Positions 4,096-30,393 of a stretch of 64,000 nucleotides of DNA are shown piece after piece. How positions within the stretch are numbered: position 1 is the first letter of the stretch; every line of letters starts with the position of its first letter. The stretch covers positions 128,001 through 192,000 of the forward strand of contig OY759599.1 in assembly GCA_963662465.1 (NCBI GenBank). The letters run 5' to 3'. Made by a program: the position numbers and the translations under genes. The notes under the pieces were generated by a model that did not search any database, had not been told where the DNA came from, and was given only the letters and a program-made list of their open reading frames with translations. This stretch comes from Desulfatiglandales bacterium. GTDB lineage: Bacteria > Desulfobacterota > DSM-4660 > Desulfatiglandales > Desulfatiglandaceae.

Positions 4096-4558
4096 CGGTT
4101 TTTATAAAAATGGATGTATTCATCCCGGGATATGTAAATTCTGAACACATACCGGAATCAAGGACAAAAACTGAAAGATTAAAAATGTAGCGTGGCGGTC
4201 ACTTCCGGCGTGACTAATCCGGGAGAACGGACCATTTAATTTCTATCCTGGATTAGGCACGCGAAGTGGGCATATTTATGCCACCTATCTTTATTTATCT
4301 TTCACAGGCTATCTGCCAAAGGGAGGGTTTGGGAGGGAAATAAGGTTCCCCTCTCAAATTAGAAGAAGAATTTGCCATAGGCGACCCCGTGGGGGGAAAG
4401 GTTTAAATAGGCGTTTGCGGTGAGCAAAGCGGAGCGTACTCCTTTTAAGCCTTTAGCCGTGAAGTGGCACAAATAGTCCACCTTTCGTTGAGGCGGAATC
4501 TATTGGATATCGTCAAGATAAAACCACTGCTTATTTTTGATTTAAATCATCCTAAGGT

Positions 4559-7775: not shown

Positions 7776-8954
7776 ATGGACCCAGTAACAAAGGACATTC
7801 TATCCCAGCTCGACAATCTCTTGGCAGCCAGTAATCAATCGTGGCTGTTCGGTGCAGGAATCAGCCTTGATGCAGGGATTCCTCTGATGTGGCCGCTTAC
7901 TGAGCGAGTATTCACGAGGGCAAAAGACGATGGAGAACCGAGTGACATCAAAGTTCTCGAGTTTGTAAAGAGCCAGCTTTCTGACGATTCGCATATTGAG
8001 CACATCTTGAGTCAGCTCGGCGATCACCGCGCGATTGCCGACCGCTCAAAGGACAAGAATGTCGCGTTCGACGCCATTTCTCTCTCGGTGGATGACCTTG
8101 ATGGTCTTCACCAAAGGATTCTGACATGGATTGCTGAGACAATTCGATGGGGATACAAACCTGCTCAACCTGTGGGGATTCCTGAGGAAATTGGGACGTA
8201 TGAGAACCGTATTGTCGTTATCGACAACCATTCAGCATTCGTTTATGCCCTCTTCAATCGAAGCCAAGCAGGAATCGCAGAACGACGGAGAGCAGTCCGG
8301 CTATTTACCACCAACTACGATACCCTCCTTGAAGATGCTCTTGCACTTGGAGGCTTCTCGTGCTGGGATGGGTTCTCTGGCGGCGCGGTCGCGTATCGTA
8401 GCCATCGTTACGGCGACGAAGAGCCAAATCTCAGAGATCGTGCGCATGTAATCAAGCTTCACGGGTCGATCGACTGGCACTTAGGAGAAGATGACCGAGT
8501 CTGGCGAGTCCGCGACGGGGATCTCTATCCTAAGAAAGTTTCTCGGGTTCTAATCTACCCACAAGCCACAAAATACCTTGCGACTCAAAGGGATCCATTT
8601 GCGGCCCAATTTGATCTATTCCGGCGTTCACTTGGGGCACGGGAGGAGAATGTTCTCGCAACATGTGGATACAGCTTTGGGGACGAGCATATCAACCAGG
8701 AGATTGAACTGACGCTACAACGCCCGGAGAACAAAGCAACGGTTCTCGCCTTTGCTCAGAAGCTCAATCCGACTCTCGAAAGGTGGAGGACCGGTCCGTG
8801 GGGTAAACGTGTCTATGTCATTTCAGCGGATGGCTTGTATGTAGGTGCAGACGGACCTCAAGCGCCTCCGACTGCTGGAGCAAAACGAGATTGGTGGACG
8901 TTTTCTGGCGTGACCAAAATGCTAAACTGTGGAGCGGAGGCGTGTGCGCTATGA
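7776..8954 (+). CDS. SIR2-family NADase effector of a Sir2-HerA defence system
   Basis: WLFGAGIS, FTTNYDTLLE, KLHGSIDW, CGYSFGDEHIN; GGAGG RBS; ATGA-coupled to HerA. Confidence 0.92.
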   Translation: MDPVTKDILSQLDNLLAASNQSWLFGAGISLDAGIPLMWPLTERVFTRAKDDGEPSDIKVLEFVKSQLSDDSHIEHILSQLGDHRAIADRSKDKNVAFDAISLSVDDLDGLHQRILTWIAETIRWGYKPAQPVGIPEEIGTYENRIVVIDNHSAFVYALFNRSQAGIAERRRAVRLFTTNYDTLLEDALALGGFSCWDGFSGGAVAYRSHRYGDEEPNLRDRAHVIKLHGSIDWHLGEDDRVWRVRDGDLYPKKVSRVLIYPQATKYLATQRDPFAAQFDLFRRSLGAREENVLATCGYSFGDEHINQEIELTLQRPENKATVLAFAQKLNPTLERWRTGPWGKRVYVISADGLYVGADGPQAPPTAGAKRDWWTFSGVTKMLNCGAEACAL

Positions 8955-10837
8955 ATACGTTTGAGCTTATTTCGGACCTGAAGATTGGGCACATCGTTGA
9001 GGTGTCCGGAACTACCATTCGGGTAGAGTTATCAGGAGATGTCACGGAGCTCACCCGAACCTATGAGGGGAGAGTTTATCCCATCGGACAGATCGGTAGC
9101 ATCGTAAAAGTCCATTTTGGAAGACGCTTGGTCTTCGGTTTCGTGACGCTGCTAAGAATGAGGTCTGAGGAGCTTCTTGAGATTACAGAGCCCATTCCAC
9201 CCGATGCCGATCAGCGGCTCATGGAAGTCGAATTGTTTGCGGAAGGTATCTGGAACGCAGCAGACCAAAAACTCCGGTTCGTTCGAGGTGTGACGACCTA
9301 TCCGCTTCCCCGTCAAAGCGTGCATCTGCTCACTCGCGAGGAGACTACCCATATATACTCAGCGGCTGAGGGGCAGCAGAATGACGGCGAATATAGCCCG
9401 CTCGTTCCATTCGCTCATTACGTTGGAGCAGACAATGCCTTATGTCGGGCAAACGTAGATAAAATGCTGGGCATGCATTGCGCGGTTCTAGGTTCAACGG
9501 GTTCAGGAAAGTCTGGTGCGGTTGCTGCTTTGCTTCATAGCATGCTGGATCACACCCCTGAACCGGCCGCAGTCTGTCACCCGAGAATCCTCATCATTGA
9601 TCCTCATGGGGAATACGGCCACGCGTTCAAGGAACGTGCGATCGTTTATCGTGCTTACGACCCACTTGGAAACGAAGAGACGACCGGCTCTCCGATAAGC
9701 CTCCCCTATTGGCTCATGTCGGCGGACGAGATCAGGACCTTAGTGATTGGAAAAACTGAACAGGAAGCTACATCACAGAACAACATCATCTACAAGGCCA
9801 TCACCTATGCCCGAATGGTTGCCGCTGACCTTGTTGAGCCTTCCCCGACCGCACATGGCGGAGCGGCCCCTACCGATGGCTTAGACCATGATGCACCACG
9901 GCCAAAGGCAGGAGTTACGTTCGAACAGCTGATTGAGTTCGATCACGACAAGCCGCGACCGTTCAGCCTCCAGGAGTTTTACAACCACATTTTCTATTTG
10001 CAGGCAGCGCGCGTGCAGGGAGGCGCGCTTCAGAGCGTTACGGCTTCTGAATTCGCCTCAAAATTCAAATCCATCTTGGACAAGCTCTCAGTCTTGAGGC
10101 GTGATCCACGGATCCGTTTCATGATGCGGGAATGGAATGATCAGAGCCCTTCACTTGAGCATATTATCGCCCAGTTGGTCGGACAGATCCAAGGTGAGGG
10201 AGGCGTAGATCAAGACATTCGTATTTTGGATATTTCTGGTCTTCCAAATGAAGTGGCCGGTCCACTTGCTGCCATGTTGGCTCGTCTGTTGTTTCAGTAT
10301 AAGGTTTACCAGACAACGGAGGAAAGACGACGCGATCCAGTCGTCTTCGTGTGTGAAGAAGCTCACCGATATGTCCCCGACAGAGGCGAGGCCGAGTATG
10401 CAGCGGCTCAAACCGCAATCCGAAGGATAGCTCGTGAAGGGCGGAAATACGGTATTGGCCTCATGCTCGTGAGTCAGCGCCCCGCCGATATAGAGAGCAC
10501 TGTGATTTCGCAATGTGGCACATGGCTCGTCCTGCGGCTTACAAACGCAGCGGATCAACAGCACGTTTCTCGTTTCTTGCCAGATGGATTGTCAGGCATG
10601 ACGAAAGCACTGCCTAATCTCGCTCAGCAGGAGGCAATCTTCGTTGGCGAAGGCGCTGCGATGCCCGCTCGAGTTCGAATTCGAGATCTCGAAGATGACC
10701 AATTGCCGAAATCGGAGACGGCAAAATTCGCAAAGGGTTGGACCCTTGATCGGCTTACCGAAGCGGAGATTGCAGCAGTCGCTAACCGAATGGCCGGAGA
10801 AGTAATGCACACCCCAGGAGGACAAGAAAGCGTCTAA
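8951..10837 (+). CDS. herA: HerA ATPase/translocase of the Sir2-HerA system
   Basis: N-terminal HAS-barrel-like region, Walker A GSTGSGKS, Walker B VCEEAHRY, REGRKYG, SQRP; ATG at 8951 overlaps the SIR2 stop. Confidence 0.92.
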   Translation: MNTFELISDLKIGHIVEVSGTTIRVELSGDVTELTRTYEGRVYPIGQIGSIVKVHFGRRLVFGFVTLLRMRSEELLEITEPIPPDADQRLMEVELFAEGIWNAADQKLRFVRGVTTYPLPRQSVHLLTREETTHIYSAAEGQQNDGEYSPLVPFAHYVGADNALCRANVDKMLGMHCAVLGSTGSGKSGAVAALLHSMLDHTPEPAAVCHPRILIIDPHGEYGHAFKERAIVYRAYDPLGNEETTGSPISLPYWLMSADEIRTLVIGKTEQEATSQNNIIYKAITYARMVAADLVEPSPTAHGGAAPTDGLDHDAPRPKAGVTFEQLIEFDHDKPRPFSLQEFYNHIFYLQAARVQGGALQSVTASEFASKFKSILDKLSVLRRDPRIRFMMREWNDQSPSLEHIIAQLVGQIQGEGGVDQDIRILDISGLPNEVAGPLAAMLARLLFQYKVYQTTEERRRDPVVFVCEEAHRYVPDRGEAEYAAAQTAIRRIAREGRKYGIGLMLVSQRPADIESTVISQCGTWLVLRLTNAADQQHVSRFLPDGLSGMTKALPNLAQQEAIFVGEGAAMPARVRIRDLEDDQLPKSETAKFAKGWTLDRLTEAEIAAVANRMAGEVMHTPGGQESV

Positions 10838-12245: not shown

Positions 12246-12614
12246 TTATCTCAGTTCTTCAATCGGCCCAATATCCACCGGCTCTTCCTGGATGGCAATG
12301 TTTGTGGCCTCTGCTCCTTCAGGTCCTTCTGCGACCTCCACCTTGAACAGGTTTACTGTCTGGCCGCGCTTGTTGGTTGTTTTTCCTCCAAAAGTTATCC
12401 TCACCTTTTGGCCTATCTTAACATATTTCATCCTGTCGTCTAAAACCGCAGTGCCCCAGACAAAAAACATACCGGCCTTTGTCTCGAGATAGTATCTGGC
12501 GCTTAAGCCCGATATTTCATCTTTAGGTTCTCTACTGACGAGCACTCCTGTTATCTGCTCATTTTCTTTTTCAGGTTTCCAAACGCCTGGTTCTATGGTC
12601 TTCCATTCATCCAT
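12246..12614 (-). CDS. putative OB-fold single-stranded DNA-binding protein (virus/plasmid type)
   Basis: W-x-P...ITGVLV...YYLET...FVWGTAVLD...GQKVRITF beta-rich pattern with acidic tail; GAGGTG RBS. Confidence 0.55.
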   Translation of the reverse strand: MDEWKTIEPGVWKPEKENEQITGVLVSREPKDEISGLSARYYLETKAGMFFVWGTAVLDDRMKYVKIGQKVRITFGGKTTNKRGQTVNLFKVEVAEGPEGAEATNIAIQEEPVDIGPIEELR

Positions 12615-12744
12615 TTTTTTCACCTCTAATTCTGTCAACCGAGGAATTTCTCCTCTATGGGCCAGCGAAAACAGTCAGATTTATTAAATCTTTCCTTTGC
12701 GAGACCCTGCATAATGACATGGCGCGGGAACCGGACGGATGGGA

Positions 12745-13905
12745 TTACATGGTTTTACGTTCGAGTTTAAGGAGCCCTTTCTCTGTTTTTATGAGACCGG
12801 TGATTTTCCTTTCCAGGTCTCTAATATCTTGTATCATCCCGGAAAGATCCTTCAAAAGGACCCGGGCCTTTGCAAGATAAGGCGTTGATTCATAGGGATA
12901 ACCCGCCTGCATCTTTTCCATGGCGGCTTCGAGAAAACGGTTGAAGGCTTGCAGGTGCTGTTCCAGCCGCGATTCGGTTCCCATTACCCTTTGTTCAAGG
13001 TTGATTTTTTCTTCCTCCCGTGAAATTTCCGCTTGAAGCACATACCGCTCTTTTCCAGAAAGCTTGGTCAACCGGTCTTTGAGCTCTTTCAATTGGTTCA
13101 TGTCTAATGTTTCCAAACGCCTGAACACTTCTTTGAGATGTACAAGTTCATTTTTGAACAGGGTTTCTTTGCTGGAAATTGTTTTCAGGGTTCGAACGAT
13201 TGTTTCACGGGCCTCTCTGGGAAGACTGTTTCTATTATTTTCCACGGCTTTTTGGATCTCTCCCAATTCCGAGGCAATGTCATCCACCGTGTGAAGCTGT
13301 ATTTCAGTTGATTTTCCGGCTTCCTTAAAAACCATTTTTTTCTCCCGATCTTCGACGTCAATTTCTTGTTCTACCTTCGCTCTGAAGGGATTTGTAATGT
13401 TGCGAACGGTCAATCCGCGAGGCCTGTGGAATTGGAAGATTTTGTAAAGGCTTACAATAAAGAGGATGAGGAGTCCCAGATTGACCAACCCGAGATTACG
13501 CTCGCCGAGGTTGTAATATACTTCCGGGAATTTGAACCATGACAGGATATAGAAAAGAATATAGGTCAGGTGAAATGCTTTTGCCGCAGCCATGCCAAAG
13601 CCCCTGCACAGACCGAAGGGTACAGTGGCCGCCATAAAAACCAGCAAGATGGTTCCCAGCATTCCCCAGCCTTCGAAGATGTTGGCGATACGCTCCCGCA
13701 TCATGAAAACGCCCACCGTGAGCATGAGCCCCACAGAGATGATCAGAGGCCTGACGTAGGGTTTTGTGAAATGCTTTCTGAGGGTAATGCCGGCAATGGA
13801 TATGAAAAAGACCAACAGGACGGTGAAATAGATCCATTCGGTATACCTGGCGAGGATCTCACTGGGTTTGAGGATGTCCAGCGGGAAAAGCGTGGGGGAA
13901 GGCAT
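12745..13905 (-). CDS. membrane protein (about 5 TM) with long coiled-coil C-terminus
   Basis: Hydrophobic segments in the first ~155 aa, then a charged heptad-like region. Confidence 0.75.
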   Translation of the reverse strand: MPSPTLFPLDILKPSEILARYTEWIYFTVLLVFFISIAGITLRKHFTKPYVRPLIISVGLMLTVGVFMMRERIANIFEGWGMLGTILLVFMAATVPFGLCRGFGMAAAKAFHLTYILFYILSWFKFPEVYYNLGERNLGLVNLGLLILFIVSLYKIFQFHRPRGLTVRNITNPFRAKVEQEIDVEDREKKMVFKEAGKSTEIQLHTVDDIASELGEIQKAVENNRNSLPREARETIVRTLKTISSKETLFKNELVHLKEVFRRLETLDMNQLKELKDRLTKLSGKERYVLQAEISREEEKINLEQRVMGTESRLEQHLQAFNRFLEAAMEKMQAGYPYESTPYLAKARVLLKDLSGMIQDIRDLERKITGLIKTEKGLLKLERKTM

Positions 13906-14640: not shown

Positions 14641-14783
14641 ATATTGATGGTCCCGTAAAAAGTCCCCAAGCCCGCCACCCTCGCGAAAGCGGGGGTCCAT
14701 AAGCCCCTGACTTTCCTGGATTCCCGCTTTCGCGGGAATGACTAAAACGGACGATTTTTGACTTTTTACGACTGCATCAATAT
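14641..14783. mobile_element. MITE-like repeat containing a REP-like hairpin
   Basis: Imperfect terminal IR ATATTGATGgtccCGTAAAAAGTC / GACTTTTTACGactgCATCAATAT; internal ATTCCCGC-TTTC-GCGGGAAT. Confidence 0.75.
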
Positions 14784-15148
14784 CCAACCATTTTCGGCCG
14801 CCGAATTCTCAGCTTTCCGGGCGTTGCCACACCGATACAACCTGCCAACCTCTCCAGCATACCTGATTTCAAAACTTCCTGAATCAATTGTTTCATTTGG
14901 GGGATTCCTTCACCCTCAGGTCTCAGGAGTAATACGCCGTAATGGGTTCCCGGTGGGTGTTTTCGAATATTAGCAAATCCTTTATCACCCGTAATAAGGA
15001 AGCGTTCTTCCTTTTGAGCGATTTCCCAGAGTTGCGGATCCAGAGCTCCAGAAATTCCTTCTTCCAGGACGGATGCTGTATCCGGAAAAACCTCGCGCAC
15101 AAGCTCGACAACGGCTTTGGGCAAATCTTCGTCTATTTTTATCTTCAT
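14777..15148 (-). CDS. DUF5615 PIN-like toxin (VapC45-like)
   Basis: MKIKIDEDLP, D-x-x-LW-x-x-A, LITGDKGF, GVLLLR. Confidence 0.85.
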   Translation of the reverse strand: MKIKIDEDLPKAVVELVREVFPDTASVLEEGISGALDPQLWEIAQKEERFLITGDKGFANIRKHPPGTHYGVLLLRPEGEGIPQMKQLIQEVLKSGMLERLAGCIGVATPGKLRIRRPKMVGY

Positions 15149-15150
15149 CG

Positions 15151-15387
15151 TTAACTGGCCATGGCATAGACGGATTCCTGAGACACCGATTCAGAAGCGT
15201 ACATTAAAGCCGCTGAAACATCATCGTTAGTGAGTTGAGGATATTCTTTCAATACATCCTCCCTATTCAATCCCTGAGCCAGGCTTCCAACAATCACACT
15301 GACGGGAATGCGGGTTCCCTTGATACAAGGCTCCCCCCCTCTGAGATCAGGATGAGAAATGATCTTTTCCAAAAAAACCTGTTTCAT
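15151..15387 (-). CDS. DUF433 antitoxin (VapB45-like)
   Basis: GGEPCIKGTRIPVSVI...EYPQLT-x-x-DV-x-AAL-x-YA. Confidence 0.9.
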   Translation of the reverse strand: MKQVFLEKIISHPDLRGGEPCIKGTRIPVSVIVGSLAQGLNREDVLKEYPQLTNDDVSAALMYASESVSQESVYAMAS

Positions 15388-15766
15388 AACGTCCCCTCCA
15401 AAATTTCATTTATGCTCACGCAAAGTCTTTATACGTCCATGGCAAAAATGCTTTGGCCACTTTTTCAATCAACGCATAAACGCGATCAATATTCTCAGAA
15501 GTTCTATGAATTCGTCCAGTTCCATACTCTGGCACGATTACTTTGAAAACCGTACCGGTCCCCATAGATTCTGAGCAAGGCAATAATGTCAAGAAGCCAA
15601 CCTCTCAAGGGATATTTCAAGCAAGATTAGAAATCAAGGAAAAAACTTAATCGACTTACTGGCGCAGACTTATTTGCAGTAAAATCTTTTGATTCAGTAC
15701 CAATCTCTCATCTGAGCATCGAGCATTTTGATGCTGATTGCGGGAATTTGAGGTACGTGGGAAGAT

Positions 15767-16013
15767 TTCCTGTGGAAACGGATTTTAGCATTTGTGGTAT
15801 GCTTTTTCAACTTTTCCGGTTATCACCAATCAGGGACGACGTTTATAAACATCATCACCATTATATATATTTTACAATATTGTAAATAAATATATATATA
15901 ATAACATTACTTTTTTACCTGCTGAAGTTCCACAGGACATTTACCCCTCCAGCTCGGTTGCCACTTTGAAATGGTCATTAACATTTAAATACTGCCTCTG
16001 TTTCATGTGGAAG
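15767..16013. promoter_or_regulatory. candidate archaeal-type origin/operator: inverted ORB-like boxes flanking an AT-rich tract
   Basis: TTCCTGTGGAAACG (+, 15767-15780); CTTCCACATGAAACAGAGG (-, 15995-16013); GTTCCACAGGAC (15927-15938); nearly pure A/T tract ~15860-15916. Confidence 0.6.
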
Positions 16014-16016
16014 TAG

Positions 16017-17273
16017 ATGAAGGAAATGTCCGATGGAAATTTTTTGAAGCCGGATAGTACTGAATCACTAATCGAATCTCTCCATGCCACTCAGAGGAAG
16101 AGAACCTTGGTCATCAACCCTGATTATCTTGATGACGAAAAACTGCCGGAAGATGAAAGGGCAGCCGTTCTAAAAGAAATCTTTAATCGTAACATCCGTG
16201 AAAAACAACTGAGTAGAATCATTTCCCATCTCGCACCGGTCCTGGATGGTATTCACCCGAATTCTGCCTTGATCTTCGGACCAACCGGCGCCGGAAAAAC
16301 AGTTACTTTGATGCACGTACTTTCCACCTTTGAATGGGTCGCTGAAACCAAGGGAGTCATGTTCCGCTATTCGTATATTGATTTGACCTCCCCAAAAACC
16401 TACTTTGGCGCCTTAAATGAGGTCGCTATTTCTCTTGATAGCGCATGCAAAAAATACCGTAAAGGTATTCCAATTGAGTACATGCAGGCGCAAATAGTGG
16501 AGTCGCTCGGAAATTATGACGGTTACCTCAGTCTACTCATCGATGAGGCTGACAACATCCGGCCTAACTCCGACGGCTTTCTCACATTTCTTGCAAAAAC
16601 ACTTCCCCGGAAAGTCTCTTGCAGATTGATTCTTGTTCTCCTGACCAATCGGCTTGACTGGGAGAAAACCCTTGACCCCAGGATTCTGAGTTTTTTCAAA
16701 AAAACCGATATGATCTTTGAACCCTATGACGCCCTTGATCTCCTTGAAATCCTGAAACTCAGGGTTGAGAAAGCCCTTGATATGACCAAGGTCGATATGG
16801 CTGCGCTCAAAAAGGTGGCTGCTTATGCCTCACGGGAAACCGGAGACGCAAGAAAGGCCGTTGAACTTCTGGCCAAAGCTGTCAAGGTAGCCGAAGAAAG
16901 CACGGGACGGCTCTCGGAAAAAGAAGTCGATATTGCGGCAGACCGACTTGAGATAGACAAGACAGAAGAACTTGTCAAGGCACTTGCGACCCAGCAGCGT
17001 GTAGCCCTGAAGTCCTGTTATGGCGCCTTATCAAATGGCAGCAAAAAGACATATACAGGCCAGGTTTACCGGGTCTATGGGGACGTATGCGGTCGGGAAG
17101 GCCTGCGGCCTCTAACCCAGAGACGTTTCTCTGAGATAATGAGCTTTCTCGATCTTTACGGTCTGATCAATGCCAGAGTCATCTCAAAAGGTCGATACGG
17201 AAACACGCGGGAGATATCAAGTTCTTTGCCGGATGAGGTTGTGGAGCGTTTTCTTTTTTCCAGTATCTATTGA
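16017..17273 (+). CDS. cdc6: Orc1/Cdc6-family replication initiator (AAA+ plus winged helix)
   Basis: Walker A GPTGAGKT, Walker B LLIDEAD, F-x-PY-x-x-x-DL-x-EILKLR, GDARKAVELL, C-terminal LTQRRFSEIMSFLDLYGLINARVISKGRYGNTREI. Confidence 0.9.
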   Translation: MKEMSDGNFLKPDSTESLIESLHATQRKRTLVINPDYLDDEKLPEDERAAVLKEIFNRNIREKQLSRIISHLAPVLDGIHPNSALIFGPTGAGKTVTLMHVLSTFEWVAETKGVMFRYSYIDLTSPKTYFGALNEVAISLDSACKKYRKGIPIEYMQAQIVESLGNYDGYLSLLIDEADNIRPNSDGFLTFLAKTLPRKVSCRLILVLLTNRLDWEKTLDPRILSFFKKTDMIFEPYDALDLLEILKLRVEKALDMTKVDMAALKKVAAYASRETGDARKAVELLAKAVKVAEESTGRLSEKEVDIAADRLEIDKTEELVKALATQQRVALKSCYGALSNGSKKTYTGQVYRVYGDVCGREGLRPLTQRRFSEIMSFLDLYGLINARVISKGRYGNTREISSSLPDEVVERFLFSSIY

Positions 17274-17806: not shown

Positions 17807-18604
17807 GTGGTATTTGTGCAAAGTGAATTAAGGGGTGCAACGGCCCTGGTGCAAGAAATAAAGGTCAGCAGCCCGCTCGTATCAGCAGTTATTCGAATCC
17901 TAAAGCGTGTCGATGACTTCAAAAAGCTCGCCAAGGAATTCTATTTTGATGTCATTCTATCCGTCCACCAGTGCCCGCGGTGCGGTAGTCGATTAGAAAT
18001 GACCGGAAAAAGCGAATGCTCCTGTGTGTGTGGCAATATCTTTGATCCAACAATTGCCTTTCAGAAATCCGCTTGTTGTGGCAAGCACCTGGTTCGCAAA
18101 TCACAGCATTATATCTGCTCCGGATGTGGAACAAACGTTCCCTCCACATTCCTTTTCGATGAGAAACTGTTTGATAAAGCCTATTTCAGGGAGATGGTAA
18201 AGAAATCCAGATCACGGGCTGCAAAAAGAAGGGAAGAGATGAAAAGGCTTTTGGCAGAGAGCAGATCAGGGGCACTGGTTTTCGCTGATGAGCCCTGCCT
18301 TGAATTCATCCCGGGGCTTATTGAAGATCTGGATGATTTTATTGGAACAGAAAGACTCAGGCCAGGGGATTTCGCTCTGGATACCAACTCAAGTTTCAAA
18401 ATGGACGATTATCGCGAGCACATCCTTCGTATTCTGGGATGCGACAGTCTATTGTTTTCAGATATTGATACCCTTATTAGTGATGCGCGCCGGGACAAAA
18501 TATGGCGATTTGTGACGCTCACGTTCATGCAAAGCGCAAGGGAGGTCATGCTCACCCAGTATGGCAACGATCTCTTAGTGGAGAGGACTTCATATGAAAC
18601 TTAG
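17807..18604 (+). CDS. multi-zinc-ribbon protein with C-terminal wHTH-like region
   Basis: CPRC, CSCVC, CCG, CSGC clusters; overlaps the next gene. Confidence 0.7.
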   Translation: MVFVQSELRGATALVQEIKVSSPLVSAVIRILKRVDDFKKLAKEFYFDVILSVHQCPRCGSRLEMTGKSECSCVCGNIFDPTIAFQKSACCGKHLVRKSQHYICSGCGTNVPSTFLFDEKLFDKAYFREMVKKSRSRAAKRREEMKRLLAESRSGALVFADEPCLEFIPGLIEDLDDFIGTERLRPGDFALDTNSSFKMDDYREHILRILGCDSLLFSDIDTLISDARRDKIWRFVTLTFMQSAREVMLTQYGNDLLVERTSYET

Positions 18605-18950
18605 CAATAAAAATAAGGACTTTTTGGAACGGTTGAAGGTTCTCCTCATTAGTAAGGAGCTTAGCATAGAGTGGAAAGATGACGGCATAAAGCGGCTCGT
18701 GCTGCGGCAAAACTATGGGGACAAAGTTGAACGGGATTTTAATATGACCCGGCAGGGAGTCCGCTGGAGATTTCAGCGCCTGTTTAACGAAATTTATGTC
18801 AACGCCTATCTCACCGTGTACTGGATCGAGTCCAAGTTTGGGACAGAGTTACGAGCGAGGGCCTTGGAAATCGCAAGAGAGAGGGTTGAACTCAGGAAAA
18901 AGGCGGAGGAAAAGGGCTTTTTTGATGTTTCCCGTCGAGAAAAGGGATGA
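18594..18950 (+). CDS. hypothetical protein (HTH-like)
   Basis: GGAGAGG RBS; FNMTRQGVRWRFQRL resembles an HTH recognition helix. Confidence 0.65.
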   Translation: MKLSNKNKDFLERLKVLLISKELSIEWKDDGIKRLVLRQNYGDKVERDFNMTRQGVRWRFQRLFNEIYVNAYLTVYWIESKFGTELRARALEIARERVELRKKAEEKGFFDVSRREKG

Positions 18951-19231: not shown

Positions 19232-19645
19232 ATGGCTGGCACAAAAATAGATTTTAACTACAATAAGATTACTCGGATACAGGGTTTGGATGAGCTTGGA
19301 GTAGTGCTGTTTCCGGGAAATAGGAACCATCAAAAGGTTTTCCTGAGCATCTTCATAGAATTGAAATACGCAAACAACGGGCTCTTGGGCAGCCTGACTT
19401 ACCTTTGTGAGAAATATGGATTCACGCCCCGGATGCTGGAGACCGTCCGCAGCAAAATGCGACGGATGGGGATTATTGACCATGTGTCCCGCTTCAATAA
19501 GAATCATGGCTACAGAGAAGGCTGGGTGTTTTCAAGCCGATTCTCAAAAACCTTAAAACGGATGAATGAACTGTTAGTGAGTTTCAGGGAAAGAGCCGAC
19601 GCCCTTCAAGAGAAAAAGGACCGGGACTTGTTCCGCTATCTATAA
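19232..19645 (+). CDS. hypothetical winged-helix protein
   Basis: LCEKYGFTPRMLETVRSKMRRMGII wHTH-like pattern. Confidence 0.7.
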   Translation: MAGTKIDFNYNKITRIQGLDELGVVLFPGNRNHQKVFLSIFIELKYANNGLLGSLTYLCEKYGFTPRMLETVRSKMRRMGIIDHVSRFNKNHGYREGWVFSSRFSKTLKRMNELLVSFRERADALQEKKDRDLFRYL

Positions 19646-19703
19646 AATAATGATTTTGAAAACCTATAGCTTTAAATAGGTCCCGCATTTTCTGGAGAAC
19701 GAG

Positions 19704-20162
19704 GTGCTCAACGTGGACCGAAACTTAGAAAATCTACTCTATGGAAAAAGGGACCCAAAGCTCAAATCCGAAGGCGAACGTAGAATTGCATACTTTTTGG
19801 AGGAAAATTCAATCAGGTATCAATACGAAGCTGGCGTCCTGGTCAATTCGATCGAAAAAAAACCACGCATCTGGTACCCGGACTTTTATCTTCCCGAGTT
19901 TGGCGCCTACATTGAATATTATGGCCTAAAGGGACAGCGAAGCTATGACAACGGAATCAAGAGAAAAGAAACGACATATTCAAAAATGGGTCTGGATGTA
20001 ATACCTGTTTATCCATGGTCATTTTCTGAGAACTGGCAGGGCTATATTATGAAAGAACTCAAACAAAGTGTGGACCGACGTTACAAAACACTGATGAGCA
20101 AGCCTTACTGGTCACAAAAGAATACTTCCGGATATCATGGGGGATCCACCAGGCGTTACTGA
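19704..20162 (+). CDS. PD-(D/E)XK/Vsr-like nuclease domain protein
   Basis: KSEGERRIAYFL...YQYE...YPDFYLP...YIEYYG. Confidence 0.75.
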   Translation: MLNVDRNLENLLYGKRDPKLKSEGERRIAYFLEENSIRYQYEAGVLVNSIEKKPRIWYPDFYLPEFGAYIEYYGLKGQRSYDNGIKRKETTYSKMGLDVIPVYPWSFSENWQGYIMKELKQSVDRRYKTLMSKPYWSQKNTSGYHGGSTRRY

Positions 20163-20533: not shown

Positions 20534-21466
20534 TTATGCTTTGAGAGGCAGCACGGGGGTTCGGCAAGCGGAAGTACCTAAGATCGATTCTGAAGGGGCC
20601 TCTTGTTTTCCGGCGCGGACCCAGATTTCGGCCGATAAGCCATGGGAGAACATCTGTTCAAGACTTGTCAGCCATATAAAATCCGAGGGCGGCATTTCCT
20701 GAACCAGCCTTGACAACACCGCCAGCCGACCGTTTGTATTGGTGAGGAAGAGGAGACGGAACCCCTTCAGATTGCAGTCCCAGTATTTCTCGTACCGTTT
20801 ATACCGGTCGCTTCGAAAATATTCCTGATAGTTTATGACTTTCTGGCGTACGTCCCGGGGGTCGCGTTTTAGACTGGCAACGGACTCTGTCCCCATGTCC
20901 ACCTCAAGAAAGAAAAGGAGCGTGATCTGCCTTTTTCTGTTCGTTATGGAGAAAACTCCGTCCGGGGTAAATCCACTTGCATTTTGATCCTTTTCGCCAG
21001 CGGGTGGCGGTTCAAATATGAGAGGGATGTCACTTTTTTCCCGTTTTAAGAAAGGCGAATCGGGGGAGAGGAACCGGATGGAGAATTCAGGCATCGCGTA
21101 CTCCATTTCGCCCAAATGGATACGGAACCAGTTGGTTAAGAGTTGATGCTCCATGCAGCGGATTTTTTCAGCGTTTATCTTATTAATCGGCACGTCCCGG
21201 AGGACTGGATATTTAGGACCGAGCAGATCGGCGCCTTCTTGGGTGAGAGAGACCATTTTTTCAGGTCTGCCGCGACTCTGACCGAACCCGCGGGTAGCTG
21301 TGATAATGACCCCCGCCTGTTCCAGTTTTTGCAGACGCCTTCGGACTACCTGCCTGCTCTTACGTTGGATGGCAGTGACCTGGCTTGCTGTTAGCACTCG
21401 ATGCTCGGCAATTGCAGTAAGGACCTGGTGGTCGTTTTTGTTAAACTTGAATGTCATTGGATTCAT
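20534..21466 (-). CDS. replication-relaxation (Replic_Relax) family protein
   Basis: N-terminal wHTH (HRVLTASQV...VRRRLQKLEQAGVI), EHQL, TPDGVF, FFLEVDMGTES, K-x-x-x-Y. Confidence 0.85.
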   Translation of the reverse strand: MNPMTFKFNKNDHQVLTAIAEHRVLTASQVTAIQRKSRQVVRRRLQKLEQAGVIITATRGFGQSRGRPEKMVSLTQEGADLLGPKYPVLRDVPINKINAEKIRCMEHQLLTNWFRIHLGEMEYAMPEFSIRFLSPDSPFLKREKSDIPLIFEPPPAGEKDQNASGFTPDGVFSITNRKRQITLLFFLEVDMGTESVASLKRDPRDVRQKVINYQEYFRSDRYKRYEKYWDCNLKGFRLLFLTNTNGRLAVLSRLVQEMPPSDFIWLTSLEQMFSHGLSAEIWVRAGKQEAPSESILGTSACRTPVLPLKA

Positions 21467-22389
21467 TCCTCCTTTTTGGAATTTTCGGGGCTATTTTTAG
21501 TAGCTGGTACGGTTTGGTTTTGACTATTTACCCATGCTCGAACAGCTTGAAGCGCTTTTTTCGGAACAGGTGTAGTCCCGTTTAACCATGCTTCACATGT
21601 CTTTGGCTTTTTTCGACCTGTTATGCCTGAAAGTTGACCTGCACTGAAGTTATGTTGTTTGTGAAGGGCCATGAGTTCCTTGTTTGAGGGGGCAGATTGT
21701 AACGTTTCATTTGGCGTTGCCTTCTGAATCATCCACGCCGCGCTCGTTGCCACAGTGAGACCTATGGAGAGGGGTTCGAGGACCAGAACTAGAATGAGAA
21801 TGAGCATGGCAATGGCGTCTGTTTCGTTGATTTTTAATATCTTAGCGACCGCGAAAATAGGGCCGGAGGATGTCTGATCTTTGACAAATCGGGTTTCAAG
21901 TTCAGCTTGCTGTTTTGCAATTTCCAGCAGCCTGGCCTGTTTCTGTCCATAACCGGATGCTTTTCGTTCTTTTATTCGCCTCGTTACATGAGAAGTCGGA
22001 AGCCCTGCTAATGTGGCGTTTGTGGTCAATATTTGTTCTTGGAGAATTGCCGCCTCTTTTTTGAGCCCTTTAAGGGCGGTTTCGGTGGCTCTCAAGTTTT
22101 GGGTCGCCCTGGCGTGACTCAGTGACAAGAAACCTATGACTTCAATGGAAGTCAATAAGACCAGAACGGATACGATGATAACGTACAGGCTTTTGGTAAG
22201 ACCACCGAGTTTTTGCCAGTTCCGGTACAGGTGGGCCACGGTCAAGATTTTGCCGATTTCCATGCCGAGACCCATACACACAATAACGGAAGCATTGCTG
22301 ACAAATACAGACATCAGTCCGTACACGGACATGTATATGGAGCTTCCTGCAACCAGCAACAGACTGGTTGTCACAAGAATGCGGTACAT
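21463..22389 (-). CDS. membrane protein with coiled coil and C-terminal HTH-like segment
   Basis: Three N-terminal TMs (S-x-x-GL-x-x-x-F, EIGK-x-x-x-x-x-x-LYRNW), fourth TM, LSGITG...EAWLNG; ATGA-coupled to the relaxase. Confidence 0.75.
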   Translation of the reverse strand: MYRILVTTSLLLVAGSSIYMSVYGLMSVFVSNASVIVCMGLGMEIGKILTVAHLYRNWQKLGGLTKSLYVIIVSVLVLLTSIEVIGFLSLSHARATQNLRATETALKGLKKEAAILQEQILTTNATLAGLPTSHVTRRIKERKASGYGQKQARLLEIAKQQAELETRFVKDQTSSGPIFAVAKILKINETDAIAMLILILVLVLEPLSIGLTVATSAAWMIQKATPNETLQSAPSNKELMALHKQHNFSAGQLSGITGRKKPKTCEAWLNGTTPVPKKALQAVRAWVNSQNQTVPATKNSPENSKKEE

Positions 22390-22454
22390 GATTCACACCT
22401 CCCTTTTTTCCGGGAACAAGCTGGCGGGTACTGATTGAAAAACATGACCTTTTT

Positions 22455-22670
22455 CTGACCATCCGGTTTTGGTCTGATCCGGCCAGGGTTTTTGGTGGTT
22501 TGATCAAGTTCCTTTTTGTCTGGTCAGGTTTTGGTCAGGTTTTGGTCAGGTTCGGTCCAGTTCCCGTCCGGTTTTGGTCAGGTTTTGGTCAGATTCCATT
22601 CTGGTCAGACTGATTCAGGTTTTTTTCGTTTCAGGTTCTTTTCATGTTTCCCGGTTTGGTCAGGTTTTGG
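22455..22670. repeat. 11-bp repeat array (TTTTGGTCAGG)
   Basis: TGGTCAG at 22521, 22532, 22543, 22575, 22586, 22602, 22657; inverted CTGACCA at 22455. Confidence 0.85.
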
Positions 22671-22715
22671 AACAGATTCGGGCCGTCTCGGATTGTGATG
22701 GTTCTTCAATGTTTC

Positions 22716-23426
22716 CTAAAATCTCACAATGCACTTTTGGACCCAAGGATCTGCAATGGCTTTCAGCTTGAGGAGTTCGTCCTTGTCATGACCAGCGCCT
22801 GTTTTGGCGAAAAACAGGGGATTCAGTACTCCATTATTATGGAATCGCTGTAAGGCATAAAGCTCAGCGCCCTTTATGGTTCGCACAACATTTTTCATGC
22901 TTTGTTCATCCACGATCGGTTTTATGCAGGTTGTCCTGAACTCATAGGGTATGCCTGATCCCATGATGTTTTCAATGCTTGCGAGCGTTTGGTCTGGATC
23001 ATATTCTTTCGCGATGGTGGATGGATAGCGGAGAGGATCGGTCTTAACATCCATGGCGATATAGTCAACGAGCCCCTCATCGATCATACGTTTGATGACT
23101 TCCGGCCGGCTGCCGTTTGTGTCCAGTTTGATCAGATAGCCGATCTCCTTTATTTTCGTGCATAACAAAACAAGCTCCTTCCGGAGCGTTGGTTCTCCGC
23201 CGGAAATAACCACACCGTCAATGAAGCCTTTGCGGTTTTCAAGAAACTCGCAGAACGCTTTTTCGTCAAGTCCATTTGAATATCCTGAACCGCCTTTTAC
23301 GAGCTGTGGATTGTGGCAATAAGGACAGGTGAAATTGCAGCCCGAAACAAAGAGCACACAGCTTAATTTCCCGGGATAGTCAATCAGTGAATTCTTTTGT
23401 ATTCCACCGATAATCATTGAATGCAC
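22716..23426 (-). CDS. nrdG: anaerobic ribonucleoside-triphosphate reductase activating radical SAM enzyme
   Basis: SLIDYPG, GCNFTCPYCHNP, ISGGEPT, KLDTNG, YEFRTT; directly downstream of nrdD. Confidence 0.93.
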   Translation of the reverse strand: MHSMIIGGIQKNSLIDYPGKLSCVLFVSGCNFTCPYCHNPQLVKGGSGYSNGLDEKAFCEFLENRKGFIDGVVISGGEPTLRKELVLLCTKIKEIGYLIKLDTNGSRPEVIKRMIDEGLVDYIAMDVKTDPLRYPSTIAKEYDPDQTLASIENIMGSGIPYEFRTTCIKPIVDEQSMKNVVRTIKGAELYALQRFHNNGVLNPLFFAKTGAGHDKDELLKLKAIADPWVQKCIVRF

Positions 23427-23461
23427 TCCTCATCGATCCGGTTTTGTTCCGCAAGAAAACT

Positions 23462-25186
23462 TCAGGCCGCCTCAAACACTTTTCTCATATCGTATTCTGC
23501 TTGTTTTCCGTCGTTCCACTGCTTGACAGGTCTCAAGTAGCCAACGACCCGCGAATAAACTTCCGTTTCTTTCCCGCAATCAGGGCAGCGTTTTTGCTCT
23601 CCGTTCAGGTACCCGTGGGACGGACAGATGCTGAAGGTTGGAGTCAGTGTGAAATAGGGAAGCCTGAAATGATTAACAACCTTCTTGAGCAACGCCCTTA
23701 TTGATCTAACGTCACTGACTTGTTCCCCCAAATAAATATGAAGGACTGTTCCCCCCGTATATGTTGCCTGCAATTGGTCCTGTAACTCCAAGGCTTCGAA
23801 AATATCGTCCGTGTAATTTACGGGTAGCTGGGTAGAGTTTGTATAAAAAGGTGCAGCTCCTTTTCGGTATTCCGCTTCATTTGCACAGATGATTTCAGGG
23901 AACCTTTTCTTGTCAAGCATCGCAAGTCGATACGATGTGCCTTCTGCAGGCGTTGCTTCTAAGTTGAACATTTCGCCTGTCTCATCTTGTATTTGGGAAA
24001 TGATTGTGCGGATATGGTCCATGGTTTTGAGGGCAAATACCTGTCCTTTTTCACTTCCGATGTCCCTCCCAAACAAGTTCAGGCACGCCTCGTTCATGCC
24101 GATGATTCCGATGGTTGAAAAATGGTTTTTCCAGTAAAGCCCAGTGCCCTCTTTGATCTGTCTTAAGTAGAATTTTGAATAGGGATAGAGGTTTTTATCT
24201 GTGAAATTCTCAAGGACTTTCCTTTTTATTGTGAGGCTCTCTTTTGCAAGGTGAACAAGCTTTCCCAAATGCTTCATGAAATCATCCTCGCTATCCGCCT
24301 GATATCCTATGCGGGGGAGGTTAATGGTCACGACTCCGATTGAACCCGTCAGGGGGTTCGCGCCGAAAAGACCGCCGCCTCTTTTCAGGAGTATCCTGTT
24401 GTCAATGCGAAGGCGGCAACACATGGATCTTGTGTCTTCAGGCGACATGTCGGACCTGACAAAGTTTGAAAAATACGGAATCCCGTATTTCCCTGTCATG
24501 GCCAGGATCGCTTCAAGCACTGGGTTGTCCCAATCAAAATCTTTTGTGATATTGTAGGTAGGTATGGGAAAGGTGAAGACACGCCCTTTGGCATCGCCCT
24601 CCATCATGACCTCGGCAAATGCCCTATTGATCATGTCCATTTCTATTTGAAAATCGGAATATGTCTCTTTTTGTTCGATGCCTCCTATGATGACACGTTG
24701 GTTTCTCAGAGTTCGAGGGGGGGACAGGTCTAAAGTAATGTTGGTAAATGGGGTTTGGAAGCCGACTCTGGTCGGGACGTTTATGTTGAAAATAAATTCT
24801 TGCAGCGCCTGTTTCACTTGTCGGTAATCAAGGCCGTCATACCGAATAAAAGGGGCAAGAAGGGTGTCAAAATTTGACATAGCCTGAGCGCCGGCAGCTT
24901 CACCTTGTAATGTATAGAAAAAATTAATAATTTGTCCTAAAGCAGGCCTGAAATGTTTAGGTGGTGCACTCTCGACTTTCCCCAGGACACCCTTGAAGCC
25001 TTGCATGAGCAAGTCTCTCAGTTCCCAACCAACACAATAAACAGAAAGGAGGCTGAGGTCGTGTATGTGGAAATTTCCTCTTCTGTGTGCGCGCCGAATT
25101 TCCGGGGGGTATATGTGGCTTAACCAGTATTCAGAGGTGATATCCGATGAAATATAGTTATTGAGCCCCTGAAGGGAATAGCGCAT
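23462..25186 (-). CDS. nrdD: class III ribonucleoside-triphosphate reductase, 5'-truncated by an IS
   Basis: YSLQGLNNY, HIHDL, YCVGW, SMCCRL, EATPAEG, CPSHG...CPDCG, glycyl-radical YSRVVGYL. Native sequence ends at the IS end (25181); the in-frame ATG (25184-25186) lies inside the IS IR. Confidence 0.9.
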   Translation of the reverse strand: MRYSLQGLNNYISSDITSEYWLSHIYPPEIRRAHRRGNFHIHDLSLLSVYCVGWELRDLLMQGFKGVLGKVESAPPKHFRPALGQIINFFYTLQGEAAGAQAMSNFDTLLAPFIRYDGLDYRQVKQALQEFIFNINVPTRVGFQTPFTNITLDLSPPRTLRNQRVIIGGIEQKETYSDFQIEMDMINRAFAEVMMEGDAKGRVFTFPIPTYNITKDFDWDNPVLEAILAMTGKYGIPYFSNFVRSDMSPEDTRSMCCRLRIDNRILLKRGGGLFGANPLTGSIGVVTINLPRIGYQADSEDDFMKHLGKLVHLAKESLTIKRKVLENFTDKNLYPYSKFYLRQIKEGTGLYWKNHFSTIGIIGMNEACLNLFGRDIGSEKGQVFALKTMDHIRTIISQIQDETGEMFNLEATPAEGTSYRLAMLDKKRFPEIICANEAEYRKGAAPFYTNSTQLPVNYTDDIFEALELQDQLQATYTGGTVLHIYLGEQVSDVRSIRALLKKVVNHFRLPYFTLTPTFSICPSHGYLNGEQKRCPDCGKETEVYSRVVGYLRPVKQWNDGKQAEYDMRKVFEAA

Positions 25187-27188: not shown

Positions 27189-28267
27189 GAAAAACCTTGG
27201 CTGTCGGTGTTTACCCCGAAGTGACATTGGCCGAAGCCAGACAGCAGCGTGATGATGCGAGGAAGCTGTTGCAGAAAGGTGTGGACCCGTCCCAGCATAA
27301 AAAAGAAACAAAATTAATTCAGCGGGAATTAGCGGTCAATAATTTTGAGGCCGTAGCGCGGGAATGGTTCGATAAAAATACTCACGTTTGGACGAAAAAG
27401 CATGCGACAACCGTTATCCGGCGTTTGGAGTTAAATGTTTTCCCCATCATCGGCAACCGTCCAATTAAGCTGGTTACTGCTCCTGAACTCCTGGAAGTCC
27501 TTCAGAAGATAGAAAGCCGTGGAGCCATTGAGACAGCCCACAGGGTCAAGCAAATATGTGGTCAGGTGTTCCGGTATGCAATTGCAACCGGACGGGGGGA
27601 GCGTGATCCGAGCGCAGACCTCAAAGGGGCTTTGACCCCTGTGAAGCCAAAAAGTATGGCAGCGATTACCGATCCTAAAAAGATTGGGAGTCTGCTCAGG
27701 GCTATTGACGGTTATGACGGGCAAATTATGACAATGTGCGCCCTGCGACTTGCACCTCTGACGTTTGTGCGCCCTGGTGAACTCCGGCATGCTGAATGGT
27801 TGGAAATTGACCTGGATAATGCCGAATGGAAGATACCAGCTCACAAGATGAAAATGAAGCTCCCCCATATCGTACCACTATCCAGGCAAGCCGTTGATAT
27901 CCTGGTTGAGCTCAAACCTATTACGGGTGATGGACGGTATGTCTTTCCTTCCCTGCGAAGTACCGTCAGGCCTATGAGCAATAATACCGTCAATGCGGCT
28001 TTGAGGCGTATGGGGTATGCGAAGGACGAAATGACCGGCCATGGTTTCAGGGCCATGGCGTCAACGATCCTTCATGAACAGGGGTGGCCATCCGATGTGA
28101 TCGAGCGTCAACTTGCCCATACTGAGGGGAACAGCGTGAAGGCCGCTTACAACCATGCTCAGCACCTTCCTGAACGGCGGAAGATGATGCAGTCATGGGC
28201 TGATTGCCTGCATGCGTTAAAGGGCGGTGCTCAGGTGACCTCCTTCCGGCGGGTGAATGGAAGTTAA
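27189..28267 (+). pseudogene. P4-type tyrosine integrase, 5'-truncated in the arm-binding domain
   Basis: Begins abruptly at KTLAVGVYPEVTLAEAR right after the IS IR; catalytic VRPGELR, HGFRAMAST, LAH, AAYN intact. Confidence 0.9.
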
Positions 28268-28526
28268 GTGGGATATCTTATGTGGGGGTAAACGGTAAAA
28301 AATAACATTTCCGATCCTATGCGCAAAAAGCGCAATATTTGCGTAAGGTTTTAATGGTGCCCATGGATATGGTTGCTCCCGAAAAGCGGGGCGCCCTATC
28401 TAATTTCAACATCGCCGTGACGTACAGTTAAATTTTCAGTTTCCGGGGATAGGTTCTGCAGACCGATAAGGCGTGATTACCTGTCTCGCTTTCCCCGGAT
28501 TAACAACAAGGCCGTGAGGGGCGGCT

Positions 28527-29372: not shown

Positions 29373-29589
29373 CGTAACTGAGGAAGAGATAAAAAGACAC
29401 AGGTTTGCTAGGGTTACGCTTAGACGAATAACTGAATAAGGAGTATTTATATGTAAATACCTAAGTTACTTGTCATTTTTGACATAGCATTTTTTTGTAG
29501 GCATAAGAAGTCCGACATCTTAAATGATGTTTTGGGCTTTTTTTTTGGCCGATAGCTTCAAACAAAAGAATTTGAGAGGGGGTGAAGAA

Positions 29590-29796
29590 ATGAAAAACAA
29601 ACCGAACCTAGAACTAAAAACTATCCTTTTTAAAAGAGGCATTACACAGCGTCAATTGTCTTTTGGAACTGGCATTGACGAAGGTCTGATTTCAAAGACA
29701 ATTCGCTATGGCATGACCACTGCGCAGATCAGGGAACGGATCGCTGATTTTCTGAATGTGAATCAATCAGAGCTTTTTAACTATCGGAATTACTAA
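29590..29796 (+). CDS. Cro/XRE-like HTH protein
   Basis: GITQRQLSFGTGIDEGLISKTI...IADFLNV-x-x-x-ELF; GAGGGGG RBS. Confidence 0.8.
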   Translation: MKNKPNLELKTILFKRGITQRQLSFGTGIDEGLISKTIRYGMTTAQIRERIADFLNVNQSELFNYRNY

Positions 29797-29820
29797 TTCA
29801 ACTAAAGGGGGTGTTCTCAA

Positions 29821-30370: not shown

Positions 30371-30393
30371 GGCCCATCGAAGAGGAAATCGCA

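Follow-up and report, generated by a model that had tools for sequence, protein, structure and literature searches.

A 64,000-nucleotide stretch of the chromosome of a Desulfatiglandales bacterium (the window; GenBank assembly GCA_963662465.1, contig OY759599.1, here G000:C1:128001-192000) carries an orc1/cdc6 gene beside two inverted boxes that resemble archaeal origin recognition boxes (ORBs) and flank an A/T tract, a candidate DNA-unwinding element (DUE). The same arrangement accompanies related genes in other bacteria, and the island that holds it has mobile relatives. Our best explanation, which we judge about equally likely to be right or wrong, is that this module serves a family of excisable elements, long resident in anaerobic bacteria, as origin and self-regulated initiator, and that it loads a helicase other than MCM. 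An initial annotation of the window, made from its letters alone, had proposed an archaeal-style origin kept by a mobile element; two features are absent from it, a box over the start codon (16016-16039) and a motif resembling an archaeal promoter (15969-15991).

An Orc1/Cdc6 gene in a bacterial chromosome

The source genome, G000, is closed, consisting of one contig of 8.16 Mb with 100% completeness, and its host is a sulfate-reducer-type bacterium. A tblastn search of this genome matched only the orc1 gene, at 0.144 Mb, which lies in low-GC surroundings rich in insertion sequences (ISs), far from oriC: the GC-skew minimum, near 5.74 Mb, falls at a DnaA-domain gene (5.768 Mb), and one full DnaB is present, at 6.73 Mb. 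G000 has two strong DnaA-domain genes (C1:4,828,000 and 5,768,000; 164 and 134 bits), with the skew minimum only at the second. Together with the bacterial genes around the module, including a lysS-like gene and Omp85 in the window, these data bear out the proposal of a bacterial chromosome as host. A chimera of archaeal and bacterial DNA created by assembly, a concern raised in the initial annotation, is extremely improbable. Many carriers of the gene are metagenome bins, but the module stands amid bacterial genes in two closed one-contig genomes, G000 and G496; a 9.8-kb contig of run X1, which may be the source sample, spans it unbroken; and the island genes are unlike archaeal chromosome genes.

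The orc1/cdc6 open reading frame (ORF; 16017-17273, forward strand) encodes 418 amino acids, or 415 from an ATG at 16026. To judge by its profile and fold matches, it is a true member of the Orc1/Cdc6 family rather than an outsider, as the initial annotation had allowed. It scored 235 bits against TIGR02928 (cut-off, 181) and did not reach the thresholds of the archaeal PRK00411 equivalogs, which are narrower. Pfam searches placed AAA_22, Cdc6_lid and Cdc6_C in order in one chain, and residues 58-412 matched Aeropyrum ORC1 (PDB 2v1u, E = 6e-47) and Sulfolobus Orc1-1 (2qby), the same chains that came top when the predicted structure was searched with Foldseek.

We aligned 41 of the 120 closest matches, 40 of 119 from a second subfamily and 96 out-group sequences. 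K91, D173-E174, N208, R219, R276, R366 and G389-R390 are invariant in the sampled 41 and 40 members, and catalytic and wing residues are 98-100% conserved across both subfamilies. They cover Walker A and B, sensor 1, arginine finger, sensor 2, recognition helix and GRYG wing. The initiator first described is indeed full length with all of these ATPase motifs, and its archaeal-type winged-helix tail has the GRYG wing, whose GR is invariant in both subfamilies. The clade is set apart by its initiator-specific motif, KYRKGI, where the out-group is PFTG-like, and by position 263, an invariant Lys that is Leu in 58% and Lys in 19% of the out-group. Lys263 and Ala260 sit in a helix before sensor 2 (residues 260-270), kept and conserved in the clade, which we located as the putative MCM-recruitment helix by analogy with the one described in PMC12890983. 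The gene is intact and under purifying selection, with a dN/dS of 0.065 against its relative at locus L066 (dS was saturated for two other pairs).

Inverted boxes flank an A/T tract

Boxes were scored with a 24-bp matrix in which a G-rich tail precedes TTTCC-NN-TGGAA. The matrix was rebuilt for each tested locus with that locus left out, and was applied to 38 upstream regions, those of the window and of 37 other loci; we excluded the out-group, four duplicates and loci that lacked an N-terminus or enough upstream DNA. Convergent boxes 60-350 bp apart, our definition of a pair, were found in 31 of the 38 regions and in none of 1,900 dinucleotide shuffles. The left box of the window (15755-15778, forward strand) has its G-rich tail outside, followed by a TTCC-N3-GGAA core, and reaches 33.0 bits in leave-one-out scoring; the right box (15927-15950, reverse strand) is inverted to it, also with the tail outside, and reaches 31.1 bits. 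They rank first and second in the genome, and the 64 sites that reach 12 bits on either strand of G000 include no other convergent pair. Because the loci are kin and seeded the matrix, two later loci outside it, at 75% and 44% protein identity, are the better test, and their pairs scored 32.1/30.9 and 29.4/26.8 bits, respectively. Conservation of the boxes upstream of homologues, on which the initial annotation had staked its proposal, thus reaches down to 44% protein identity. At locus L016 (G004:C2), a group II intron lies between both boxes and spreads the pair 2.2 kb apart.

The A/T tract between the boxes (15860-15917; 54 of 58 positions A or T) is the candidate DUE, and its level at 15860-15909 (47 of 50), in keeping with the nearly pure tract initially described, is reached in merely four G000 regions. 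It contains a conserved central palindrome (15871-15886), a candidate site of a second, dimeric protein. A family consensus drawn by eye, TTTTC-N-ATAT-N-GAAAA, recurs with at most two mismatches in 24 of 33 paired regions versus 44 of 6,600 shuffles, lying 31-56 bp from the right box and 35-206 bp from the left. The window therefore has the anatomy by which an ORB-DUE-ORB origin is recognised, two inverted boxes flanking an A/T tract beside an initiator gene. Further sites stand closer to the gene. A degenerate, tail-less core at 16001-16013 (forward strand), oriented like the left box, is visible at the same place in homologues and could be an operator covering the transcription start; on the full matrix, the box at 15995-16013 scores -8.6 forward and -42 reverse. 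The box over the start codon or codons (16016-16039, forward strand; 16.5 bits) is a candidate autoregulatory operator, and a forward box of at least 12 bits lies at -50 to -10 of the start, or over it, in 27 of the 38 regions.

All strings quoted in the initial annotation were found where it had placed them (the left core at 15767, the palindrome at 15871-15886, an 'extra' box at 15927 and a third box at 15995-16013), but their relationships needed revision. The two boxes that it called oppositely oriented have the same sense instead: each begins TTCCAC on the minus strand, so they are direct copies. The 'extra' box is real but had been given the wrong role, as it is this site, 15927-15950 on the reverse strand, that pairs in inverted orientation with the left box. 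Likeness to archaeal ORBs, which vary between initiators, holds for the core TTCC-N3-GGAA but not for the G-string, the tail being its base-complement instead. Core and outward tails are as in the boxes beside the archaeal-type orc1 loci L088, L089, L094 and L096, and core and spacing match those at L088, L092, L094 and L096, with the window-box tail C-rich on that strand. The G-strings of these out-group boxes point away from A/T tracts, and the window tail occupies the same place with complementary bases; the canonical archaeal ORB, with its G-string 3' of the core, is not matched. We propose that a minor-groove contact would tolerate such flipped tail pairs.

The initial annotation had also suggested that the boxes might serve for autoregulation only. 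The start-codon boxes do fit autoregulation, but as an addition, since the inverted pair flanks the A/T tract instead. We think it unlikely that Orc1 only regulates the island or organises its DNA, in the manner of the non-initiator Orc1-2, with the boxes as operators of a divergent control region. Regulation does not call for conserving the A/T tract, with its palindrome fixed between inverted boxes, or for keeping the arginine finger and sensor 2 invariant, and strong boxes are confined to one place per island in the 18 islands scanned, with none before other genes. Such a role would nevertheless fit the overlap of boxes with the start codon in most loci, the invariant Lys263 in the putative MCM-recruiting helix, and the absence of a helicase partner and a skew signal from the searches described below; non-initiator Orc1/Cdc6 paralogues are also on record (PMC12890983).

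TATA-like boxes upstream of island genes

In 37 of the 38 upstream regions, the stretch from the right box to orc1 contains AGTG-N9-10-TTTAWATA with an A-rich stretch at the position of the archaeal B recognition element (BRE), agreeing at 10 or more of 14 consensus positions. In the window this BRE-TATA-like motif spans 15969-15991 (forward strand), with its TATA-like 8-mer (15984-15991) 25 nt before the first ATG of orc1, and it is the second-best site in G000 under leave-one-out scoring. A strong copy that ranks third in G000 lies at 4387-4409 (forward strand), directly before an IS, and its gene may be displaced. In the archaeal promoters described in PMC6640164 the last A of the TATA box is 23 bp before the transcription start, and PMC6028130 gives a TATA spacing of about 26 nt for archaeal leaderless genes. 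By this comparison, the window spacing is that of archaeal leaderless genes, and the motif agrees with an archaeal BRE-TATA promoter in both sequence and spacing.

Other island genes share this arrangement. Under a rule that was chosen after the data were seen, and among family members that are kin, a TATA-like 8-mer ends 21-27 nt before the start codon in 9 of 12, 5 of 8 and 5 of 8 members of three backbone families, compared with 50 of 5,131 host ORFs; four window genes show it. Only 1 of 19 non-orc1 genes with the 8-mer has a word resembling a Shine-Dalgarno (SD) site. Among orc1 genes themselves, the 8-mer lies at 21-27 nt in 5 of 42 and at 28-34 nt in 10 of 42, and it is absent at 21-27 nt from the families of the winged-helix protein (0 of 16), HerA (0 of 13) and HU (0 of 10). 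At three loci (L010:5786-6539, L014:4341-5916 and L080:3520-5215), the membrane/coiled-coil backbone gene reads away from orc1 across the origin, and its own TATA-like box sits just outside the left box.

Several other readings of the motif were rejected. Compared by eye with consensus sequences, its spacing or letters do not fit a sigma-70 -10 or -35 element, sigma-54, sigma-28, IHF or dif. A sigma-70-like site does occur at 15966-15993, at a frequency compatible with chance (3 found versus 1.7 expected). Nor is the motif a general host promoter, with 9 of 105 top genome sites lying 15-120 nt before an ORF.

A deep bacterial clade on mobile islands

All 20 GTDB loci (68-82% identical) are bacterial by title, mostly from Desulfobacterota and also from Zixibacteria, Planctomycetota, Spirochaetota and Bacteroidales, and every organism-named protein of the Orc1 clade is bacterial. 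Its spread is patchy: orc1 was carried by 4 of 401 genomes of the phylum (one of them merely a 30% fragment), 10 of 209 genomes of the order with G000 counted, and 1 of 10 other genomes of the genus, with up to four copies per genome. Distant subfamilies (33-46%) bear the names Thermodesulfobacteriota, Syntrophales, Aminicenantes, Planctomycetota and Myxococcota. In a midpoint-rooted FastTree phylogeny of 78 rows (57 without a label; a locus row with a stop codon was omitted), a branch with support 99 separates the 17 rows labelled bacterial from named Woesearchaeota and Micrarchaeota sequences. The nearest named archaeal sequences are ~33-37% alike and on a long branch; the tree, with this root and two named archaeal rows, did not resolve the nearest archaeal donor. 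On this topology, bacterial Orc1 is a deep clade separate from archaeal Orc1.

In viral contigs, orc1 matched only two weak fragments (27-29%), and neither it nor a 130-residue island protein described below had a close relative. In the plasmid collection, the best 40 of 399 orc1 matches were to archaeal plasmids only, at <30% identity, and the HerA-like ATPase had only partial matches of 22-26%.

These data also bear on whether the module is the decaying remnant of a recent acquisition from an archaeon, which we regard as very unlikely. The G000 copy does show IS insertions, a cut nrdD gene and no detectable attachment (att) ends, and the relatives L005 and G413 are frameshifted. Against this stand the low dN/dS, the >1600 related 90% clusters scored in one search (out-group included), the motifs kept at 44% protein identity and the long branch to the nearest named archaeal sequences, which largely refute a relic at the level of the family.

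The genes shared by the G000 island and other carriers extend over about C1:117,000-153,200. A backbone set recurs across carriers, including winged-helix, zinc-ribbon, acidic-tailed 130-residue and membrane/coiled-coil proteins, a HerA/VirB4-like ATPase, Cas4-like and small PD-(D/E)XK nucleases, RadC, an ArdC-like protein, HU and Replic_Relax. Evidence for mobility, and for the mobile element initially proposed, comes from G496, whose closed element of ~68 kb reaches from a 48-bp copy of a tRNA-Asp end and a tyrosine integrase to tRNA-Asp beside lon-clpX-clpP. This relative, which has both an integrase and a duplicated attachment site, also encodes RepB primase, the DnaN clamp and an SNF2-type helicase, and the family as a whole has a patchy, multi-copy spread. 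In G004, a 39-bp tRNA-Arg repeat occurs in copies 52 kb apart. Defence cargo elsewhere includes BREX, SMODS, Sir2 and Mrr in G496, and OLD-UvrD and KAP-TatD in G005. No VirB genes were found among the scanned ORFs, a subset, of the G000 island or G496; G005 has VirB8/9/11 and TrwC 25-40 kb from orc1, where membership of the element is uncertain. Five genomes of the genus gave no clean empty site. At L117:5748-14243, a run of cas genes that looks Type I-E-like by eye adjoins the left end of the G496 element.

How the module might work

Starting from the observed sequence, conservation and mobility, we propose binding, melting, helicase loading and repression as follows. The element would excise from the chromosome as a circle. 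ATP-bound Orc1 would occupy the boxes with one monomer each, its wing on the core and its initiator-specific motif on the tail, and a second dimer, probably encoded by the element, may bind the palindrome. The A/T tract would then open and a non-MCM helicase would be loaded, most simply the single DnaB of the host. On the start-codon boxes, Orc1 would repress its own gene, and we propose that this self-repression would limit copy number and keep the origin quiet while integrated. The TATA-like boxes would act as promoters for short-leader or leaderless transcripts, read by some other factor.

A number of results weigh against this proposal, besides the kinship of the 38 loci and the seeding of the matrix from them. 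Seven of the 38 regions lack a pair (one is split by the group II intron, one is on a short contig and one is boxless), and a locus in G479, 40% identical, scores only 9.3/16.1 bits. No MCM was found in six carrier genomes, where PF00493 gave weak partial matches only (best E = 1e-8), nor did PF00493 match anything inside the closed G496 element, which extends the initial remark that no MCM lies in the window; the weak matches resemble those of ClpX and E. coli. Archaeal Orc1 is described as loading MCM and not as melting DNA alone (PMC7776575). At fourfold sites to the left and right of the module, skew did not switch in any of 11 loci. We know of no mechanism by which Orc1 loads DnaB. Replication was not observed, and no circular or excised form was seen; neither an att repeat nor an intact integrase of its own was found for the G000 copy, the only direct repeats bounding it being low-complexity 14-mers. 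With the IS-cut nrdD and no att repeat, this copy may be immobile. TBP (PF00352) was found in none of 10 carrier genomes and TFB (PF00382) in none of five, at the sensitivity of profile searches that match all four archaeal controls, so to judge by these profiles the reader of the TATA-like boxes is left unnamed by our best explanation.

The X1 contig over 14713-24554 has a depth of 36.7 compared with 28.1-32.9 for its neighbours, a value that we did not use since contig depth is not copy number, and a contig from an RNA run of a relative covers 15860-16675, from which strand and start cannot be read.

Absence of the archaeal partners would be expected if the element shuttled between domains, being transcribed and replicated in an archaeal partner with TBP, TFB and MCM and resting, integrated, in syntrophic bacteria. 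Three host-dependent archaeal features kept together (origin geometry, BRE-TATA spacing and the intact helix before sensor 2) would also be explained, and the missing TBP, TFB and MCM extend to the closed G496 element. We nonetheless consider such a shuttle improbable. No archaeal carrier occurs among the 20 GTDB loci, a weak count of 0 of 20, or among organism-named proteins of the clade, archaeal genomes being outside the direct search; a named subclade consisting only of Planctomycetota suggests long bacterial residence; and further counter-evidence comes from integration beside the bacterial lon-clpX-clpP at tRNA-Asp, from other backbone genes that have normal SD sites and encode bacterial products (HU and DnaN, for example), and from a box tail unlike the archaeal one. 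The whole archaeal-type control layer, origin and core promoters together, could be functional, either through cycling between bacteria and archaea or through unrecognised proteins, carried by the elements, that let bacterial DnaB and RNA polymerase start from ORB and TATA sites; we hold this to be somewhat less likely than the contrary.

Other genes of the window

At the left end, a Cas4-like PD-(D/E)XK nuclease identified by profile scans (367-1173, reverse strand) is followed by a backbone gene of a family without a name (1258-1845, reverse strand), which has a TATA-like 8-mer at 1874-1867, 21 nt before its start; 5 of 8 family members have one at 21-27 nt. A cargo Sir2-HerA anti-phage pair occupies 7776-10837 (forward strand; PADLOC SIR2, E = 7e-149, and HerA, E = 5e-141). 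The 130-residue backbone protein with an acidic tail (12246-12638, reverse strand) has a family of 10 and no Pfam, PHROG or PDB match; its sequence pattern leads us to suspect a single-strand-binding oligonucleotide-binding fold. The adjacent membrane/coiled-coil gene, so named from its sequence (12745-13905, reverse strand), has a TATA-like 8-mer at 13934-13927, 21 nt before the start, and no SD site; its family is found in 12 places, 9 of them with the motif at 21-27 nt and 0 of these with an SD site. Two near-identical copies, 27-28% identical to the window's, lie elsewhere in G000 without orc1 (C1:42,000-43,800 and 8,099,500-8,102,700), each with a TATA-like motif 24 nt upstream and a second motif on the other strand; by gene content, they represent related islands without the origin module. 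Beyond the left edge of the window (about C1:117,000-128,400) are a HerA/VirB4-like ATPase, an AAA ATPase, and ArdC-like and RadC genes.

To the right of orc1, a multi-CxxC zinc-ribbon protein (265 residues) and a 118-residue protein (17807-18950, forward strand) have families of 10 and 9, and their Atlas clusters are 100% bacterial where known. The winged-helix protein that follows (19232-19645, forward strand) is the commonest companion of orc1, found in 17 places. Its predicted model (pLDDT, 78) has generic winged-helix matches with Z up to 8.3; we rejected mimicry of TFE-alpha or of the MCM wing, as the fold matches are only generic and Pfam gives no support. A complex prediction with Orc1 scored 0.00 and gave no answer. 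Next is the small PD-(D/E)XK-like backbone nuclease (19704-20162, forward strand), with a TATA-like 8-mer at 19671-19678, 25 nt before the start, and 5 of 8 family members with one at 21-27 nt. PDB profile searches with four backbone families returned nothing significant. The right arm (20534-25181, reverse strand) comprises Replic_Relax, a coiled-coil protein, nrdG and nrdD by Pfam, and this block recurs in G527:C406 at 70% DNA identity. An IS (25182-27187) cuts the 5' end of nrdD, because of which the island copy (23462-25181, reverse strand; 74% alike to the 697-residue chromosomal copy) is without the N-terminal ATP cone of the latter, its frame entering from the IS.

Several other features were noted. 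Directly left of the origin, 14777-15387 (reverse strand) holds a DUF5615 (PIN-like) gene and, by eye, a small upstream partner, resembling a toxin-antitoxin pair. Beside it, a hairpin-rich 128-bp repeat (14644-14771) has two other copies in G000, reaches very high depth in one run of a marine metagenome, and resembles miniature inverted-repeat transposable elements or repetitive extragenic palindromes. The region 27197-34176, with a P4-type tyrosine integrase whose 5' end is cut by an IS, a Cro-like helix-turn-helix (HTH) gene, a 702-residue zinc-finger/Toprim primase and a gene resembling a terminase small subunit, is probably a separate phage satellite beside the island. A PLD-SNF2 helicase gene and an adjoining ORF of 460 residues (41665-44713, reverse strand) appear to be the remnant of an IS-broken restriction or DISARM-like system, and a 4.7-kb IS21-like unit (46103-50846; istA, istB, ParB-like and HTH genes) has >20 near-identical copies in G000.

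Comparison with known systems

By family membership and anatomy the module is classed here as Orc1/Cdc6 with an archaeal-type origin that fails on the canonical G-string and on MCM. Its layout is that of archaeal oriC1-type pairs (Sulfolobus ORB3-DUE-ORB2 with Orc1-1, Aeropyrum ORC1 2v1u and Pyrococcus oriC), with two inverted boxes around a tract as in Sulfolobus oriC1 (PMC12141716; PMC6742236). According to PMC12141716, oriC1 cannot fire without either of its inverted boxes or without a motif midway along the DUE, and the module likewise has the TTCC-N3-GGAA core, outward tails and an essential-looking motif in the tract (compare ucm in the same source). It differs in lying on a mobile island of a bacterial host in which no MCM, TBP or TFB was found, in belonging to a separate deep clade, in a tail that is the base-complement of the G-string, and in an Orc1 with KYRKGI and a Lys in the putative MCM-recruitment helix. 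The promoter-like motif resembles archaeal core promoters in its A-rich element directly before TTTAWATA, its 21-27 nt to the start and mostly missing SD sites, and differs in an extra conserved AGTG 11-14 nt upstream at orc1 and in a host in which TBP and TFB were not found.

Integrative elements that target tRNA genes and carry defence cargo, RadC, ArdC, DUF932 and relaxase-like genes form a known class, with Rep or rolling-circle initiators and sigma-70 promoters but no Orc1 origin or TATA-like promoters. The islands described here share with them a tyrosine integrase, a tRNA att site and anti-phage cargo (Sir2-HerA in G000; BREX, SMODS and Mrr in G496). Initiator and cognate origin also travel together in archaeal integrative elements and haloarchaeal plasmids, as 'shell' copies of Orc1/Cdc6-origin pairs (PMC3914693; PMC4010727), although their hosts, unlike those of the module, supply MCM and archaeal transcription. 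Judging by titles in the references of PMC5862659, MCM-like helicases occur on bacterial mobile elements, namely SCCmec Cch and a Bacillus cereus prophage MCM; these too place an archaeo-eukaryotic replication protein on a bacterial element, but they carry the helicase, whereas the module carries initiator and origin and no MCM. TIGR02928 is used as an archaeal chromosome marker in the assembly screens of 10.64898/2026.05.20.726742, and its ability to mark bacterial mobile DNA is a warning for such screens.

A full-text literature search, with most subscription journals and supplements outside its scope, returned no description of such a bacterial Orc1-origin system. Replication and transcription are started by unrelated machines in bacteria and archaea. 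A widespread bacterial element that retains Orc1/Cdc6, its origin and TATA-like promoters under selection, with MCM, TBP and TFB missing, would show how one such machine can be coupled to the enzymes of the other domain; at 1.6 kb, the module is small enough to be tested directly. Were the element to pass between domains, it would be the first natural shuttle of its kind, and if the archaeal-type control layer is functional, these islands would represent a kind of mobile element new to description.

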